This document shows, one piece after another, positions 11,349 to 17,868 of a stretch of DNA of 24,000 bases (the stretch's first letter is position 1; each line of letters starts with the position of its first letter). The notes beneath the pieces are model-generated. The model was not told the origin of the DNA and did not search any database. It saw only the letters and a list, made by a program, of their open reading frames with translations. The stretch covers positions 539,982 to 563,981 of the forward strand of contig NZ_AQXU01000025.1 in NCBI RefSeq assembly GCF_000376945.1, in the 5' to 3' direction. This DNA is from Leeia oryzae DSM 17879 (lineage in GTDB: Bacteria; Pseudomonadota; Gammaproteobacteria; Burkholderiales; Leeiaceae). Both the position numbers and the translations under genes were made by a program.

Positions 11349-14300
11349 TTAGCGCAGCGCAGCCTCGATACTGTCTTCTAGCACACTCAGCAAGTAATCC
11401 GCGTTCGCCTGGCTGAAAATCATGGATGGCCGCATTTTCAGCACGTTATCAAACGGGCCTTCCGTCCCCATCAGGACCCCTCTCTCCCGCGCGCCATCAC
11501 AGATCCTTTTGGTCAGTGCCGTCGCAGGTTCCTTGGTTTTGCGGTCCAGCACCAGTTCGATGCCAAGAAACAACCCCTGCCCGCGCACGTCGCCGATGAT
11601 GTCGTAACGCGCTTGCATCGATCGGAAACCCTTGAGCAGATAGTGACCGATATCAAGCGCATTTTGCTTGAGCCCGTCGCGTTCAATCACGTCCAGCACC
11701 GCCAGGCCAGCGGCACAAGAGACCGGGTTACCGGCAAAGGTATTGAAGTATTCCATGCCATTATTAAAACTGTCTGCCACTTCTCGTGTGGTCACCAGTG
11801 CAGACATGGGGTGCCCGTTGCCGATGGGTTTGCCCATGGTCACGATATCCGGCACAACATCCTGCATCTCGAAAGCCCACCAGTGGCTGCCAACACGCCC
11901 AAAACCAACCTGAACCTCGTCGGCAACACAAAGCCCGCCGGCGGCACGTACCATGGCATACACTTCTTTCAGATATCCTTCAGGGAAAAACACCTGCCCG
12001 GCAACGCTGGGGATGGATTCCGCCAGGAAGAAGGCGGGCTTGCGGCCCTGCTTTTTCATCGCCTCAATCTGCTCGGCCACGCTTTGCGCAAACCGCTTGC
12101 CATGCTCCTCTAGCGGCCAATCCGCTGGGGCACGATAACTATCGGGAATATCCGCCTGGAACACATGGTCCGGCTTCCCCTTGCCCCCTTTGCGCTTGTA
12201 TTTGTAGGGGCTCAGTTCAATCAGTTCCTGCGTCGTACCGTGATATGACCAGTCCAGCACCAGCGCATCCTGACTACCGGTATGCTGGCGCGCCATGCGC
12301 AACATCAGGCTGTTGGCCTCGCTGCCCGAGCAGGCAAAGGAGGCGACAGATAGCCCAGCCGGCAGCGTGGCCGTCAAACGCTCGGCATAGGAAATAATAT
12401 TGTCATGCAAATAGCGGGTATTGGTATTGAGGATGGCCGCCTGCCTGGCAATCGCCTCGACAACCTCGGGATGCGCATGGCCGAGATGGCAGACATTGTT
12501 AAAGCAGTCCAGGTAGGCGCGCCCGCGATGATCAATCAGCCAGACGCCATCGCCGCGCACAAACTTGATCGGCTCCGAATAAGACATGGATAAATTTGGC
12601 AACAGCAGTTCTTTCCGGCGTGAAATGATCTCCGGACAGGAGCGCCCTTCTTGGGTAAACGCCTCGGGGGGAATACCGGCCAGCGCCGCCACATCCGGAA
12701 AAACATCCGCCCACACATCAAGATACGCCGTCTCGCCCACGCCCAGCATGTCCGATGCCGCAAGATGGATGTCCGTCGACACCTGAAGATGCAGATGCGG
12801 GGTCCAGCCACCATTCTCGGTCATGCCACCCATATGGCCCACCAGGTCCCCCGCCGCCAGCTTCTGGCCTGGTTGCAGACGCGTCACGGCCTCGTGCCCC
12901 ATATGCCCCCACAACGTCACAAAAGGCGGGCAGCCTTCGGGTTCGTGCAACAGCGTGATCAAACCGCCATAATCAAGCGGATCGGGCTCGATTTGCACAC
13001 TGCGAACGGTCGCATCCAGTGGTGTATACACCGCCGTTCCGGCTGGCATGAACAGGTCCACGCCAAGGTGGTGAATCCGGTATTCGCCCTGGATGAATTT
13101 CGACGCAAACGCAGGGCTGGTATACACCGTTCTTTTTTCTCCCCATGGCCCGATGCCCAGCTGCACATGGTGACTGGCACAGAAATCCTCCCACCATGCC
13201 GTCGCATTCGTGGGATGCTGGGCTGCCGATTCCACGGTCATGTAGTGGGTGGCATCACCATACGGCACCAGCGCCTTGGTCATCGTGGCCGGGTGCGGAC
13301 GTACGATCGGCGCAAAATGCCGGGTGTTGGCAGCAATCCAGTGCCGGATTGCCCCAGCACCTTCGACCGCATCAAATCCGCACGCCTTGCGCAACATGGC
13401 CGTCGCAAAACGGGGATTCATGGCATCCAGCCGGTATAACAGCCGCCACGCGGGTGCTTCACTAATCGCAAGATAAGGATTGTCTTGCGTGCGATCATGA
13501 CGAGAGGCCGAAAACGTCACGCTGGTGACCAGCCGCATCGCGATAAGATCAAACAGGATATCGACTTCTTCCGGCAACAGCGGGTACTTCTCGTGAAAAC
13601 CGGCAACCAGCGCACCTGCGGTCCCAATCGGGTCCGCTGTCTCCAGAATCGAATAGGCGCACGCAATCGCCACATCGGCAATCAGGACAGAATGGACAGC
13701 ATCGCCAAAATCAATCAGACCCGCAATGTTCTCTGGCTGTGCTTCGTCCACCAGGACATTCCAGTCATTGGCATCATTATGGATGACCTGTGCCCGCATG
13801 CGGGACAGCTTCGGTGCAATCTGACGCTCAAAGCGCACGATAAAACGCTCCAGCAGTGCCCGTTGCGCTTCGTCTTGTACAAAGTGCAAACGCGAGCGTG
13901 AGCGGGCGGCATGGCGGAGGTCCCAATCCAGGTCGCGTAACGCCCCCGGATGAATAAACCCCTGCAAGGCACGATCAAGCTCTCCCAGCGTACGCCCCAG
14001 ATTGCCGAGCAACGCCAAGCGCCTGTCGACCTTGGCCAGCGGCGTCCCCGGAATCCATGACACCAGACGGACCGCATGTGTTTCTCCGGTCGCCGAGACG
14101 GTCGAACCAAGCAGCTTGCCGGACAGGCTCGCTCTTAAATGCGGGACCGGCATCGCCGGGTCGGTTTCGGTCAGGTGGTGCAATAATGCCGTCTGAAACT
14201 CGCTCTCCACACCGGGCTCGCTGGCATTCACGATCTTGAGAATCCAGTCCTGGCCGCTACCGGTTTTCACGCGGAAGTTCCGGTCGCGCTCCCCATCCAG

Positions 14301-14396
14301 CGGGGACGCCACCCCTTTCACGCCAAACATCTCTTCGCAGAGTTGCTCGGCATCGGTGACGCTATAGTTTGGTGCAGGGCGAGTAAGATCCGTCAT
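11349..14396 (-). CDS. Tri-domain fusion protein (1,015 aa): APH/HYKK-type kinase + M23 peptidase domain + class-III PLP enzyme of the AGXT2L (phospho-lyase-like) type
   Basis: One uninterrupted ORF. Kinase: HNDANDWN (nt 13758-13781, the H-x-D-x4-N catalytic loop) and IDFGD (13701-13715). M23: HLGVD (13056-13070, HxxxD) and HLH (12789-12797, HxH). PLP domain: [43 protein letters not shown], and [11 protein letters not shown] with the Schiff-base Lys codon at 11829-11831. The start is taken at the ATG at 14396, with GGAAG 6 nt upstream. The listed extension to 14504 runs through the tandem repeat and lacks an SD. Confidence 0.9.
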
Positions 14397-14441: not shown

Positions 14442-14529
14442 GCGGCATGTCACAAGCAACATCAATCGTGAGTGTTCCGGGCGGCATGTCACAAGCAACA
14501 TCAATCGTGAGTGTTCCGGGCTGCATGCC
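14442..14529. repeat. Perfect 39-bp tandem duplication (2 full units plus a 10-nt partial third)
   Basis: GCGGCATGTCACAAGCAACATCAATCGTGAGTGTTCCGG at 14442-14480 is identical to 14481-14519. Positions 14520-14529 (GCTGCATGCC) match the unit start at 8/10. The repeat lies between the fusion-gene start and the conserved element. Confidence 0.95.
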
Positions 14530-14543
14530 GCAGCAGCACGTCA

Positions 14544-14635
14544 GGCAATATGTTGGCATGCAAGCTGATTTGGGGCATCATGCATGTTTCCGGAATGTCC
14601 GGCAGATTGTCGGAATAGACCGGCATCTAGCCGGG
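14544..14635. repeat. Conserved ~92-nt intergenic element, copy A (fusion enzyme / lrp divergent region)
   Basis: An ungapped alignment to 16601-16692 gives 74/92 identities by hand count. The core 14581-14625 versus 16638-16682 gives 41/45. Both copies have the same orientation. Confidence 0.9.
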
Positions 14636-14654
14636 TTAACCAAGAAGGTATTTG

Positions 14655-15095
14655 ATGCGAGAGCTCGATGCAATTGACCGCGAAATTTTGACCATCCTTT
14701 CCAGGGACGCCAGAATTGCGGTGAAGGTACTGGCCGCCCGTGTCGGGCTATCACGCAGCGCAACGAGTGAACGTGTCACGAACCTGGAGAAACGCGGTGT
14801 CATCAGGGGGTATCGGGCCGATATTGGCGAAATCAACGCCAATATCATTCGTGCCATCCTGCTGGTGAGCCTCAAGCGTACCCCAGCAAACCAGCTACTG
14901 GACCTGCTGGCAGAACAGCCCGAAGTGCGACGGGTCTCGTCGGTGAGTGGCGAACTTGACCTGATTGTGGAAATCGAAGCAAGCAATATTGACGGACTTA
15001 ACCGGGTCCGAGACTGGCTTGCCGCACACGAAACGGTAGGCGATCTGACGACGTCGATCGTGTTGCGGCGAAATATTGACCGTGAAATGCGTTGA
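14655..15095 (+). CDS. Lrp/AsnC-family transcriptional regulator
   Basis: MRELDAIDREILTILSRDARIAVKVLAARVGLSRSATSERVTNLEKRGVIRGY is the canonical AsnC HTH, followed by a RAM-like C-terminal domain. GAAGG lies 6 nt upstream of the ATG at 14655. It is divergent from the fusion-enzyme gene. Confidence 0.9.
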   Translation: MRELDAIDREILTILSRDARIAVKVLAARVGLSRSATSERVTNLEKRGVIRGYRADIGEINANIIRAILLVSLKRTPANQLLDLLAEQPEVRRVSSVSGELDLIVEIEASNIDGLNRVRDWLAAHETVGDLTTSIVLRRNIDREMR

Positions 15096-15229
15096 TGGTC
15101 TTGTGGTTATTCATCCATTTGCAAACATGATGTCTGTTGCACGCTAGACACGGTGGCCGCCAGGGCCAGATCGATGACACGCCGGATGCGTGCTAACCTT
15201 GACCCATGCACACAACGCTGTTGGCAGGC

Positions 15230-15261
15230 AAAAAAATGGGGAACCGGTGTAATGGTTCCCC
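15230..15261 (-). terminator. Rho-independent terminator of the binding-protein gene
   Basis: On the minus strand, GGGGAACC / GGTTCCCC (15238-15245 / 15254-15261) form an 8-bp stem with an 8-nt loop. This is followed by ATTTTTTT (complement of 15230-15237), about 40 nt downstream of the stop at 15300. Confidence 0.8.
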
Positions 15262-15299
15262 CGTAAATCCATCGAGGATGGAGAGAGTTAAGTGACGGC

Positions 15300-16454
15300 T
15301 TACTTCATCGTAATCATGTCGGCCGCTTTCCAGCCAGCGTTCTCTTTAAAGTTCTTGTCATAGCCATAAATCGTAATGGCGGGTGATTTCATATCCCCTT
15401 TGGCATCAAAGCTGATCGGCCCGATCACGCCTTTTACCTTGACCTCATGCATGGCCGGCACAAAGACTTTTGGGTCAGTGGACTTTGCCTTGACCATGGC
15501 GGCCAGAAAAAAGTTGGTTGCATCATAAGCCTGGTAACCATACCCCTGCAGCGGCACGCCAAAACGTTTCTGGTACTTGGCCTGCAGCTCTTTTGCTCCC
15601 GGCATTTTCGCAATATCCATGGCCGCCTGAGAGCTATACACCGTGCTGTCCATCGCCTCCCCGCCCAGACGGACCATGTCACCGGTACTGGCGCCATCGC
15701 CCAGCAACACCTTGGATTTCACACCCAATCTGCGCATCTGGACTAGCAATGGCCCGGCCGTCGCGTCCATCCCGCCATACATCACGACATCCGGGCTGCG
15801 ACCCTTGATACTGGTCAGAATCGACATGAAATCTGTCGCCTTGTCGGAAGTAAACTCGCGGGAAACCACCTTTCCGCCAAGCGCTTTTACTTTTTTCTCA
15901 AACTCATCTGCCAAACCCTGGCCGTAAGCGGTTCGGTCATCAATCACGGCAAAGGTTTTGCCTTTCAGCTTTTGCACCCCGAAAATCGCGAGTGCCGGAC
16001 CTTGCTGGTCATCACGGCCCACCAGCCGGAAAGTCGTTGCGTAGCCTTGCTCCGTCAGCTTGGGGTTGGTCGAACTTGGCGTAATGTGGGGAATGCCTGC
16101 CGCTGCATAAATTTTGGAGGCTGGAATCGTCACCCCGGAGTTCATGTGCCCGATAATGGCCGACACTTTGGCATCGGCCAGTTTCTGTGCCACCAGTGTG
16201 CCGGTGCGGGGGTCACCGGCATCATCCTCACTGTCGAGTTCAAACGACACCTTCTGACCGCCAATGACCATTCCTTTCGCATTGGCCTCTTCCAGCGCCA
16301 ACCGGACTGCATTTTCATTTTCTTTGCCCAGGTGGCCTGCCGGCCCTGTCAAAGGGCCTGAATGACCGAATTTAACGACAATGTCTGCAAAGGCAGGCGC
16401 GCTCAGCATGGGCAAACTAACGGCAGCAACAAATAAACAGCGGCGAAATTGCAT
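15300..16454 (-). CDS. Periplasmic ABC-transporter substrate-binding protein, Leu/Ile/Val-binding (LivJ/K, Peripla_BP_6) family; orphan
   Basis: Sec signal MQFRRCLFVAAVSLPMLSAPAFA/D. The mature protein begins IVVKFGHSGPLTGPAGHLGKENENAVRLALEEANA, with later IIGHMNSGV and FAVIDDRTAYGQGLADEF, typical of the type I amino-acid binding fold. GGAGAG lies about 5-6 nt upstream of the ATG at 16454; the listed start 16478 is a TTG. No permease or ATPase genes are adjacent. Confidence 0.9.
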   Translation of the reverse strand: MQFRRCLFVAAVSLPMLSAPAFADIVVKFGHSGPLTGPAGHLGKENENAVRLALEEANAKGMVIGGQKVSFELDSEDDAGDPRTGTLVAQKLADAKVSAIIGHMNSGVTIPASKIYAAAGIPHITPSSTNPKLTEQGYATTFRLVGRDDQQGPALAIFGVQKLKGKTFAVIDDRTAYGQGLADEFEKKVKALGGKVVSREFTSDKATDFMSILTSIKGRSPDVVMYGGMDATAGPLLVQMRRLGVKSKVLLGDGASTGDMVRLGGEAMDSTVYSSQAAMDIAKMPGAKELQAKYQKRFGVPLQGYGYQAYDATNFFLAAMVKAKSTDPKVFVPAMHEVKVKGVIGPISFDAKGDMKSPAITIYGYDKNFKENAGWKAADMITMK

Positions 16455-16487
16455 GGTTTCTCTCCAAGAGTCTTGCAAGTTACGTTA

Positions 16488-16545
16488 CTTCACAGGGGGA
16501 CGCATCGTTACCGCCTCTTCACGGGGGGACGCGCTAACGATGCAC
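16488..16545. repeat. 16-nt direct repeat at 29-nt spacing, combined with a 9-bp inverted repeat, upstream of the binding-protein gene
   Basis: CTTCACAGGGGGACGC (16488-16503) and CTTCACGGGGGGACGC (16517-16532) match at 15/16. GCATCGTTA (16502-16510) is the reverse complement of TAACGATGC (16535-16543). Confidence 0.6.
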
Positions 16546-16600
16546 AGGATGCCCGACCACACACCAGGCCAGACACGGCCCGGGTTATCTCGGGAAGCCT

Positions 16601-16692
16601 GGCAATATGGTGGCATGCAAACTCGCATGGAACATCTTGCATGTTTACAGAATGTCCGGCAGATCGTCGGAATTGACCGGCAAATGTCCGGT
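16601..16692. repeat. Conserved ~92-nt intergenic element, copy B (binding protein / aldo-keto reductase divergent region)
   Basis: See copy A. Consensus core: TGCATGTTT(C/A)C(G/A)GAATGTCCGGCAGAT(T/C)GTCGGAAT(A/T)GACCGGCA. Confidence 0.9.
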
Positions 16693-16881
16693 GCATGAAA
16701 AAGACAGGCGAGGGAGAGGTACAACAGATCGAGACATGCGGGCAAAAAGCAGCCCTAAGTGATGGTCACCACATGCCGACTCGACGCTAACAGGCGAGAG
16801 GATTACCATAGGAGTAAGCCCCCCGTTGATGTGAATAGATATCAACGCCGACCAATGGATGCGTAAGGAGCGATAACTCAT

Positions 16882-17868
16882 ATGAACGATAGACAACTGG
16901 GTCGTACGGGAAAAACCGTTTCGGAAATCGGGTTTGGTGCATGGGCTATCGGTGGCTCATGGGGAAATGTGCCAGAGCAGGATGCGAAAGCCGCCTTACA
17001 TGCCGCCCTTGATCAGGGAACCACCTTCATTGATACGGCAGATGTTTACGGAGACGGCCGTTCAGAACGGCTGATCGCTGCGGTACTGAAAGAACGAGGC
17101 GGTATCAAACCCACGGTAGCAACCAAGATCGGCCGACGCCTGTCACCCCATGTGGCAGAAGGTTACACCAAAGCAAACCTGACCGCGTTTGTTGATCGTT
17201 CTCTCAGCAATTTGCAAACTGACTGTCTTGATTTGGTCCAGCTTCACTGTCCGCCAACCAGCATCTATTATCAGCCCGAAGTTTTCGAATTCATGGATCA
17301 ACTGGTGGCGGATGGAAAAATCCAGCACTACGGCGTGTCTGTTGAAAAAGTCGAAGAAGGGCTCAAGGCCATCGAGTACCCGAATGTCAAAACCGTACAA
17401 ATCATTTTCAATATTTTCAGACAACGCCCCGCGAGCCTGTTTTTTGCAGAGGCAAAAAAACGCGGCATCGGCGTGATCGCACGGGTACCGCTTGCATCCG
17501 GGCTGTTGAGCGGGAAGATGAGTTTAGCCACCGTCTTTGCCGCAGATGATCACCGTCATTTTAACCGGGAAGGTGCAGCCTTCGACAAAGGAGAAACTTT
17601 CGCGGGCGTACCCTACGAAGTTGCGCTATCCGTTGTCGATGACATCCGGAAACTGGTACCCGAGGGTACCCAGATGGCGCAATTTGCGCTGCGCTGGATT
17701 TTGATGGAGGATGCGGTGAGTTGCGTGATTCCTGGCGCTAAAAGTGCACTGCAGGCAGCATCAAACGCCCATGCCAGCACCTTGCCAGCCTTGCCGGACG
17801 ACACCATGGAAGCGCTTCGTCAAATCTACGTAAGCCGGATTGCCCAATACGTGCATCAACGTTGGTAA
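16882..17868 (+). CDS. Aldo/keto reductase family oxidoreductase
   Basis: LGRTGKTVSEIGFGAWAIGG...GTTFIDTADVYGDGRSERLI (catalytic Asp/Tyr region), YGVS, and IPGAKS near the C-terminus. TAAGGAG lies upstream of the ATG. GC is lower than the window average. Confidence 0.9.
   Translation: MNDRQLGRTGKTVSEIGFGAWAIGGSWGNVPEQDAKAALHAALDQGTTFIDTADVYGDGRSERLIAAVLKERGGIKPTVATKIGRRLSPHVAEGYTKANLTAFVDRSLSNLQTDCLDLVQLHCPPTSIYYQPEVFEFMDQLVADGKIQHYGVSVEKVEEGLKAIEYPNVKTVQIIFNIFRQRPASLFFAEAKKRGIGVIARVPLASGLLSGKMSLATVFAADDHRHFNREGAAFDKGETFAGVPYEVALSVVDDIRKLVPEGTQMAQFALRWILMEDAVSCVIPGAKSALQAASNAHASTLPALPDDTMEALRQIYVSRIAQYVHQRW

Follow-up and report, generated by a model that had tools for sequence, protein, structure and literature searches.

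The window analysed here, a 24,000-nucleotide stretch of the Leeia oryzae DSM 17879 genome, contains a non-coding element of about 92 nt that stands upstream of two separate minus-strand genes, one for a fusion enzyme and one for an orphan binding protein, which raises the question of what this element is and why both genes carry it. A recount bore out the first-pass annotation in its claim of a two-copy element: positions 14544-14635 (copy A) and 16601-16692 (copy B), both read on the minus strand, share 74 of 92 ungapped identities, with 41 of 45 positions identical in the core and less likeness in the flanks, and the similarity breaks off abruptly at both edges of the module. A repeat search returned a single repeat family in the window, 14544-14634 against 16601-16691, at 81% ungapped identity. 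When a 92-nt window was slid over all offsets of the 24 kb, the per-offset maximum averaged 37.7 (sd 2.9) and the runner-up unrelated pair reached 50/92, compared with 74/92 for copies A and B; the sole background value above 50, at 57, came from a 39-nt tandem repeat matching itself. The offsets given earlier were likewise reproduced, namely 148 and 147 nt to the ATGs of the two minus-strand genes, 20 nt from copy A to the Lrp ATG and 190 nt from copy B to the next plus-strand gene. The element is probably a combined operator and promoter through which the adjacent Lrp/AsnC-family regulator acts: its repetition, conservation, fixed position and geometry were observed here, and from these sequences we infer that the protein binds, in which direction it regulates, where transcription starts and that an effector takes part.

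Copy A forms the control region between the Lrp/AsnC gene on the plus strand and the fusion-enzyme gene on the minus strand, and is read towards the fusion gene. The regulator and proposed binder (14655-15095, plus strand; 146 aa) carries the Pfam domains HTH_AsnC-type and AsnC_trans_reg and has Lrp/AsnC proteins as its PDB relatives, with scores under every NCBIfam equivalog cut-off. Target gene 1 (11349-14396, minus strand) encodes a 1015-aa fusion of an APH phosphotransferase, an M23-like domain and a class-III aminotransferase-fold domain (Pfam APH, Peptidase_M23 and Aminotran_3), which matches NCBIfam NF004799 over its full length and is named ‘hydroxylysine kinase’ by some sources. Target gene 2, downstream of copy B, encodes a LivK-type periplasmic binding protein of 384 aa (15300-16454, minus strand; Pfam Peripla_BP_6), with no permease or ATPase gene adjacent according to the annotation of its neighbours. 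The lengths of all three proteins agree with those of homologues and, along with the Pfam domains, support the initial gene calls. A paralogue of the binding protein (P0129) is present in Leeia. No tRNA gene was found by ARAGORN at the start of L008, and a literature search found no publication on this regulator or operator.

Conservation in orthologous intergenic regions had been suggested as a test of the element, and the core of copy A proved to be kept at a fixed position by the orthologous regulator gene, even in distant proteobacteria. The loci identified through protein similarity, in Paraburkholderia pallida, P. sacchari, Brucella intermedia, Pseudomonas protegens and two Mesorhizobium, all carried the divergent Lrp/AsnC gene and the same core. 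A 21-base core pattern matched 41 metagenome contigs, in 39 of which the match lay 27-31 nt before the start of an Lrp orthologue and 108-123 nt before the start of the fusion gene; the remaining two were chance matches within GC-rich coding DNA. Conservation at the pattern positions is by construction in these 39 metagenome loci, and the unbiased evidence is that of the protein-anchored loci and the flanking columns. Outside the search pattern, the conserved positions were the CCG half-site, the CCGAC of site 2, the T..TG of the -35 and the C.TGCCA...T of the extended -10. Regulator orthologues, at 71-88% identity, adjoin the motif in the 39 metagenome loci and are also adjacent in six genome loci. 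A scan of the genome collection matched only two Paraburkholderia species and returned neither Leeia nor P. pallida, and since Leeia was not among its matches it says nothing on further Leeia copies.

The predicted operator of copy A consists of two imperfect palindromes and a half-site. Site 1 (TGCCGG-TCTATT-CCGACA; 14608-14625, minus strand) is an imperfect 18-bp palindrome centred at about -74 from the predicted fusion-gene start, is present in all orthologues found via protein similarity rather than by the motif, and takes the form of a perfect palindrome, TGCCGG-N6-CCGGCA, in Mesorhizobium NBSH29. Site 2 (TGCCGG-ACATT-CCGGAA; 14588-14604, minus strand), identified in alignment A1, is centred at about -53, its start lying 21 bp, i.e. 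two helical turns, from that of site 1. The upstream half-site CCCGGC (14630-14635, minus strand) includes an invariant or near-invariant CCG, conserved 9 nt before site 1. In copy B, comparison with copy A places site 1 at 16665-16682 (TGCCGG-TCAATT-CCGACG, minus strand), identical to the secondary site of Paraburkholderia sacchari, and site 2 at 16645-16661 (TGCCGG-ACATT-CTGTAA, minus strand), the right half of which has diverged, with the same CTGTAA in a second species, Leeia sp. Three of the features expected of a Lrp/AsnC operator array were found, namely an adjacent Lrp/AsnC gene, phased imperfect palindromes of the form TGNCGG-N5/6-CCGNC and conservation in orthologous control regions. 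A loose version of the site pattern gave three extra matches within coding regions of the window (7512, 8228 and 10646) against approximately 0.9 expected, and these were treated as chance.

The fusion-gene promoter is predicted to comprise a weak -35, ATGCCC (14573-14578, minus strand), in which the TG is invariant in alignment A1, and an extended -10, TG-C-CAACAT (14550-14558, minus strand), containing the conserved TGnnAnnnT, which would place the transcription start near 14543, at the edge of the repeat. The -35 hexamer reads (A/C)TG(C/T)(C/T)N in 39/39 modules, 17 nt ahead of the -10, and the TGnnAnnnT occurs 67-68 nt past the start of site 1 in 39/39 primary modules and 23/24 secondary modules. 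At the same positions as in copy A, the binding-protein gene has a predicted promoter (16607-16635, minus strand) composed of -35 ATGTTC (16630-16635) and extended -10 TG-C-CACCAT (16607-16615), with a transcription start predicted near 16600; CATGCCA(A/C)CAT is kept in Leeia sp. Given that the likeness between the copies ends about 7 nt past the -10, at the predicted start, the promoter and operator appear to have been duplicated, and not the leader. On the plus strand, a consensus scan gave a predicted regulator promoter of TTGGCA, 17 nt and CATCAT (14553-14581), with the same hexamers and spacing in Paraburkholderia and a weaker -10 in other clades, which would put the operator at about +1 to +38 of the regulator transcript. 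The two predicted promoters overlap on opposite strands, TTGGCA with TGcCAA and CATCAT with ATGATG, in the manner of overlapping divergent (bidirectional) sigma-70 promoters in which the -35 of one lies over the -10 of the other, as recognised here from consensus matches and conservation. The near-palindrome TTGGCATGCAA, to which the first-pass annotation had drawn attention, is better read as these overlapping hexamers than as a binding site. Each promoter hexamer matches only about three of six consensus positions and was assigned from conservation and geometry. The stretch best conserved between the two Leeia species is CTGTAAACATGCAAGATGTTC, between the operator and the predicted -35 of copy B, and the true -10 of copy B could therefore lie there instead.

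The leaders between the modules and the target genes are unrelated to one another, with fold z-scores of -1.1 and -2.2. A 39-nt tandem repeat of 2.2 copies (14442-14527; 97% matches by TRF) occupies part of the predicted 5' untranslated region ahead of the fusion gene; it lies outside the shared module and is missing from the orthologues, whose leaders are approximately 120 nt shorter. The earlier report of a local tandem repeat in both leaders thus holds for copy A and fails for copy B, in whose interval to the gene TRF found no tandem repeat; that interval holds GGGGGACGC twice, as a short direct repeat, together with an inverted repeat of 9 nt (GCATCGTTA / TAACGATGC). Measured from site 1, the ATG lies 108-123 nt away in most relatives and 252-303 nt away in Paraburkholderia; for copy B of Leeia sp. 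the figure is 203 nt, and there the interval from copy B to the ATG is 25 nt shorter than in L. oryzae. Because these distances differ, the near-equal 148/147-nt offset, which is true of L. oryzae and had been put forward as a shared feature, was rejected as a functional constraint.

A second palindromic site was found between the fusion gene and a downstream SBP_bac_3 gene in 24 loci. These secondary modules have no divergent regulator gene, which suggests that the conserved promoter block serves the target-sense promoter, and the presence in many genomes of a second module of the same geometry before a transporter binding-protein gene indicates that a regulon of an enzyme gene plus an uptake gene would be the norm for this regulator. 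The Leeia locus is without the SBP_bac_3 transporter, copy B preceding the LivK-type binding-protein gene instead, and no close Leeia orthologue of the SBP_bac_3 protein occurred among its 120 best matches, all of at least 59% identity. In Leeia sp., copy B is kept upstream of an 83%-identical binding-protein gene in the same gene order. The operator of copy A in this species is largely replaced or degenerate with the regulator intact, and the enzyme gene is truncated, while the regulator and the pair of copy B and binding-protein gene persist. Conservation of copy A beside regulator orthologues, the retention of copy B in Leeia sp. and the second modules elsewhere all support the original proposal of a shared cis-regulatory module.

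Several other explanations of the element were weighed against this one. Copy B could be a non-functional relic of the regulator-enzyme control region, with the binding-protein gene using some other promoter, as might be suggested by its vestigial regulator-sense hexamers (GTGGCA and CATCTT) with no regulator gene following, by the degenerate right half of its site 2, and by its long branch in a three-way comparison with Paraburkholderia, in which 11 changes are private to B and 3 to A; the character counts from the same comparison, 5 versus 3, are compatible with an origin of B either before or after the Leeia-Paraburkholderia module split. However, site 1, the TG..C block and CATGCCAACAT are intact in copy B of Leeia sp., at the orthologous gene, while the surrounding leader is just 47% identical, the core remains closer to copy A than the flanks do, and modules of the same geometry precede transporter genes in other genomes, so a relic was considered unlikely. 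It also seems distinctly improbable that a different transcription factor, and not the adjacent Lrp/AsnC protein, binds the element, given that in every locus the regulator gene is transcribed away from the target and stands 27-31 nt from the site, an arrangement standard for a locally acting, autoregulated factor, and that no other regulator gene was conserved in the genome loci inspected. The motif does accompany the fusion gene and the regulator gene with equal strictness, such that co-occurrence alone cannot separate them, and E. coli Lrp sites are of an AT-rich type, unlike the GC-rich TGCCGG-N6-CCGGCA.

A structured RNA, such as a leader element of the regulator or a small RNA, would be compatible with the location of the operator inside the 5' leader of the regulator, if the regulator promoter has been placed correctly, and with the capacity of the palindromes to form short hairpins (single-sequence fold z-scores of -1.2 to -2.4, the folds being unremarkable). 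This was judged highly unlikely, as neither the gathering score nor a permissive limit of E up to 10 brought a relevant Rfam match, no gene follows copy B or the secondary modules in that orientation, and the covariation check proposed for orthologous copies gave no support on either strand. The RNAalifold consensus reached -5.0 kcal/mol in the target sense and -8.6 kcal/mol in the regulator sense, with covariation terms of -0.26 and +0.03; the sole change on both sides of a pair fell in one weak pair, which 5 of the 15 sequences break or lack through a gap, and pairing was confined to the palindrome arms. Two copies lying within 2 kb and pointing the same way could also reflect a dispersed genomic repeat, REP or MITE-like, present twice here by chance. 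This appears very unlikely for an element with just two copies in the 24 kb examined, both beside predicted targets of the regulator, with copy A holding the same place within a gene pair conserved in several bacterial orders, no terminal inverted repeats or target-site duplications, and no unrelated contexts in motif scans of other genomes and metagenomes save the two chance coding matches. Both Leeia copies additionally contain a plus-strand TGGCA-N7-TGGCA (14543-14558 and 16600-16615) that resembles the sigma-54 consensus TGGCAC-N5-TTGCA, with GG and GC correctly spaced, and could be taken for a rightward sigma-54 promoter. There is no gene for 190 nt rightwards of copy B, and in the Brucella and Pseudomonas clades the -24 GG is either missing or displaced, with only TTGGCA conserved; for this lack of conservation of the GG the sigma-54 promoter was rejected as extremely improbable.

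Under the favoured reading of an operator-plus-promoter module, the order towards the target would begin with the CCG half-site and a pair of 18-bp imperfect palindromes, followed by a weak -35 (xTGCCx) and, after a spacer of 17 nt, by an extended -10 (TG-n-CAAnnT). Spaced by 21 bp, with centres near -74 and -53, the palindromes (TGCCGG-N6-CCGRCA) would fall on one helix face, and the regulator, probably with a small-molecule effector related to the presumed amino-alcohol substrate of the enzyme, may bind the two phased sites. Bound just upstream of a poor promoter, it would activate the target. In copy A the sites would lie immediately downstream of the divergent promoter of the regulator itself (TTGGCA-17-CATCAT) and 27-31 nt from its start codon, such that binding should also repress synthesis of the regulator. 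Copy A would have arrived with the regulator-enzyme gene pair, which has spread across proteobacteria, whereas copy B would place the orphan LivK-type binding-protein gene under the same control and fill the role taken in other genomes by the second module before the SBP_bac_3 ABC-transporter operon.

Locally acting Lrp/AsnC regulators with a divergent catabolic target include BkdR-bkd in Pseudomonas putida and PutR-putA in Agrobacterium and Rhodobacter, and further examples are DadR(Lrp)-dadAX in Pseudomonas aeruginosa, AsnC-asnA in E. coli and LrpA-lat in Mycobacterium. As in these systems, a small Lrp/AsnC gene at the Leeia locus is divergent from an amino-compound catabolic gene, several helically phased imperfect palindromes occupy the intergenic region, and the geometry implies target activation together with autorepression of the regulator. 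The Leeia system differs from these in that its regulator scores beneath all equivalog cut-offs, its predicted site is GC-rich, its target is an uncharacterised kinase/M23/aminotransferase-fold fusion, and a second, unlinked promoter carries the entire module again. A comparable linkage of a Lrp/AsnC regulator to genes for a kinase and for a class-III aminotransferase-fold protein is seen at Hrubri_0242 of Herbaspirillum rubrisubalbicans M1, which lies beside genes annotated as 4-aminobutyrate aminotransferase and hydroxylysine kinase (PMC13275390). That regulator is of 167 aa and is described as ending the operon it shares with them, the kinase and the aminotransferase each have a gene of their own, and the passage on this regulator describes no operator (PMC13275390). 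The pairing of an APH-type kinase with a class-III aminotransferase-fold lyase also recalls hydroxylysine kinase (AGPHD1) and the 5-phosphohydroxylysine and phosphoethanolamine phospho-lyases (AGXT2L2 and AGXT2L1) of Veiga-da-Cunha et al. 2012, as cited in PMC8154272, a likeness that concerns the regulated enzyme and not the element.

A more tentative possibility, which we regard as doubtful, is that the operator-promoter unit of about 90 nt is a portable cassette, with one copy per transcription unit of an ‘enzyme plus uptake system’, and that the primary cassette, once copied in Leeia, recruited a non-orthologous LivK-type binding protein to replace the ancestral SBP_bac_3 ABC transporter. 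In that event the regulator and binding protein may also have a role independent of the enzyme, such as uptake or sensing of a different ligand, as would be suggested by the persistence of the regulator and the copy-B/binding-protein pair in the sister species despite its truncated enzyme gene and degenerate operator.

These results imply no new kind of mechanism, the locus being a case of ordinary gene control with an evolutionary twist. They provide an operator that can be put to the test (two TGCCGG-N6-CCGGCA sites at 21-bp spacing) and a promoter layout for a widespread, uncharacterised Lrp/AsnC regulator, for which a widespread kinase/aminotransferase-fold fusion enzyme is the predicted target. 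The locus would also be a clean case of regulon rewiring through duplication of a whole promoter-operator unit, with the sister species as a natural control. The predicted placement of the orphan LivK-type binding protein in the same regulon should help in finding the substrate of the pathway, because the ligand of the binding protein is a candidate for it.

A repeat search found a single repeat family in the window, pairing 14544-14634 with 16601-16691 at 81% ungapped identity, and a recount of the 92-nt repeat reproduced the 74/92 identities, and 41/45 in the core, reported in the first-pass annotation. The background for 92-nt ungapped matches across all window offsets was a mean best of 37.7, with a top unrelated pair of 50, and the likeness between the copies stops sharply at either edge. 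Copy A (14544-14635) lies between the gene for a 146-aa Lrp/AsnC regulator (14655-15095, plus strand) and a divergent fusion gene (11349-14396, minus strand) encoding a 1015-aa protein with the Pfam domains APH, Peptidase_M23 and Aminotran_3, and copy B (16601-16692) lies 5' of a LivK-type binding-protein gene (15300-16454, minus strand), with no permease or ATPase gene adjoining the latter in the window. These gene models are backed by Pfam and by homologue lengths, the fusion and binding proteins each have a 100% identical NCBI counterpart from L. oryzae, and the offsets of 148, 147, 20 and 190 nt previously assigned around the copies were all correct. The fusion protein matches NCBIfam NF004799, annotated as 'hypothetical protein', over its full length, and the regulator scores under all curated equivalog cut-offs. 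The regulator and binding-protein genes converge, and in the gap separating them a strong hairpin at 15238-15261 (GGGGAACC...GGTTCCCC), with a T-run after it on the minus strand and an A-run before it on the plus strand, looks like a bidirectional terminator.

The proposal that the repeat is a cis-regulatory module was supported and refined by comparison with other genomes. Six loci were fetched through fusion-enzyme homologues, with the motif not used in choosing them (Paraburkholderia pallida, P. sacchari, Brucella intermedia, Pseudomonas protegens, Mesorhizobium huakuii and Mesorhizobium sp. NBSH29); every one carries a divergent Lrp/AsnC gene, and the copy A core was found in their intergenic regions. 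A 21-base pattern built from this core matched 41 metagenome contigs, in 39 of which it lay 27-31 nt 5' of the Lrp orthologue start and 108-123 nt 5' of the fusion gene, and alignment columns beyond the search pattern were likewise conserved; the remaining two matches were chance occurrences in GC-rich coding DNA. The fusion enzyme of the betaproteobacterium L. oryzae is nearest to those of Paraburkholderia (83-84%), followed by Brucella/Ochrobactrum, Rhizobium, Pseudomonas and Mesorhizobium (68-78%), and the regulator gene accompanies the enzyme gene, a pattern suggesting that the pair spread horizontally together with its control region.

Counted towards the target gene from the T of TGCCGG (position 0, at 14625 for copy A and 16682 for copy B), the parts of the module are a CCG half-site at -9, site 1 (TGCCGG-N6-CCGRCA) at 0-17, site 2 (TGCNGG-N5/6-CCGAC) at 21-38, a predicted -35 (xTGCCx) at about 47-52 and a predicted extended -10 (TG-n-CAAnnT) at 67-76, with one CCG per ~10.5 bp; in Mesorhizobium sp. 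NBSH29 the palindrome is perfect (TGCCGG-TCGAGA-CCGGCA). We take xTGCCx and TGnCAAnnT, which a 17-nt spacer separates, to be a weak -35 and an extended -10 of the target gene; the invariant columns (T and G of the -35, TG, A at -11, T at -7) agree with this. Transcription would then be predicted to start near 14543 and near 16600, at exactly the points at which the likeness between the copies stops, and the duplicated unit would be an operator and promoter, with unrelated leaders. On the opposite strand, TTGGCA-17-CATCAT is a putative promoter of the regulator itself; since no more than 27-31 nt separate the predicted operator from the regulator start codon, the operator must sit at or downstream of this promoter, implying autorepression if the protein binds. 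We infer the binding of the regulator, its effector, the sign of regulation and the transcription starts.

A small structured RNA and a dispersed repeat had been raised as alternatives. Single-sequence folds of the module gave z-scores of -1.2 to -2.4; an Rfam search returned nothing relevant to the module, and its alignment gave no covariation support, with consensus structures of -5.0 and -8.6 kcal/mol formed by the palindrome arms only. Nothing pointed to a dispersed repeat, either in the window or in a genome-collection scan whose matches, in two Paraburkholderia only, did not include Leeia. A sigma-54 promoter was also considered and rejected, the look-alike motif not being conserved. The repeat is real, and the comparisons support a local Lrp/AsnC operator with promoter, of an ordinary kind.

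At 24 loci the fusion gene and a following SBP_bac_3 (ABC-transporter binding protein) gene have another palindromic site between them (for example TGTCGGCCAACTCCGGCA or TGCCGGCCAATTCCGGCA), as at L002 9125-9142, L003 9108-9125 and L005 9098-9115 among the compared contigs and at 21 more loci, with primary-like geometry: TGnnAnnnT occurs 67-68 nt past the site start in 23/24 of these secondary modules, and at the same distance in all 39 primary modules of the regulator-fusion intergenic region. Because these secondary modules lack a divergent regulator gene, the conserved TGnnAnnnT block would serve the target-sense promoter. They also contain an inner palindrome of their own (GTGTCCGG...CGGACAC), and a TTGCCGGGTG block is conserved in them. 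As the enzyme and transporter genes each have their own module in many loci, the usual regulon would be the enzyme gene plus uptake genes. In Leeia, a GGDEF gene follows the fusion gene where relatives have the SBP_bac_3 transporter, which is absent there, and no Leeia orthologue occurs among the best 120 matches to the Paraburkholderia protein (all at least 59% identity). An operator-like sequence, TGACGGT(C/T)G(A/C)(T/C)TCCGCCG, which recurs in several clades at one set position within the fusion coding sequence, about 1265-1282 nt past the primary site (L004, L005, L011, L014-L016, L018, L024, L025, L028 and L035), probably reflects coding constraint.

The LivK-type gene of L. oryzae is instead preceded by a primary-type copy, and copy B is nearest copy A (78-81% identity), copy A itself being nearer the Paraburkholderia primary modules (83-84%); character counts make copy B the long branch and leave the duplication undated. 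The sister species Leeia sp. (contig L008) has the same order of binding-protein, regulator and kinase-M23 genes. Its binding-protein gene retains, on the 5' side, site 1 as TGTCGG-TCAAGG-CCGACG, another TGTCGG 21 bp after it, CTGTAAACATGCAAGATGTTC identical to L. oryzae, and CATGCCAACAT; the 408 nt that the contig offers on that side contain no called gene. Its regulator (85% identical) and copy B/binding-protein pair are intact, and its fusion gene (L008 2089-4010) is cut to 578 aa, APH and M23 (63% identical), with the aminotransferase domain absent, kdpA directly after it and the copy A operator largely replaced by another palindrome (TCTGGTCCACCAGA).

The near-equal 148- and 147-nt offsets in L. 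oryzae are coincidental, because the binding-protein leader of Leeia sp. is only 47% identical and 25 nt shorter. Local tandem repeats had been noted in both leaders: TRF confirmed one on the copy A side (2.2 x 39 nt, near-perfect, 14442-14527, within the predicted fusion-gene leader and missing from orthologues) and found none near copy B. The public short-read assembly Logan SRR892333, from the same organism, breaks within the 39-nt repeat, at 14492. The predicted binding-protein leader (16490-16545; fold z-score -2.2) could form a 9-10 bp stem (GCAUCGUUAG...UAACGAUGC), flanked by repeated GUCCCCC tracts, a stem that is not kept in Leeia sp. Beyond copy B, a 31-codon plus-strand ORF (16699-16794, MKKTGEGEVQQIETCGQKAALSDGHHMPTRR) starts 7 nt past the module, on the side matching the regulator position at copy A, with no similarity to the regulator by eye. 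An aldo-keto reductase gene (16882-17868, plus strand) diverges from the binding-protein gene 190 nt past copy B. Copy B retains vestigial promoter hexamers in the regulator sense, GTGGCA and CATCTT, which face the reductase gene, so this regulator could affect that gene too.

A literature search found no published work on this regulator or operator. In PMC13275390, an AsnC/Lrp regulator of Herbaspirillum rubrisubalbicans is encoded beside aminotransferase and hydroxylysine-kinase genes, and this is the nearest published context; the domain pair of the fusion enzyme matches the hydroxylysine kinase and phospho-lyases of animals (Veiga-da-Cunha 2012, as cited in PMC8154272). On the sequence comparisons made here, the duplication of the module would be a tidy case of regulon rewiring, around a so far uncharacterised regulator.
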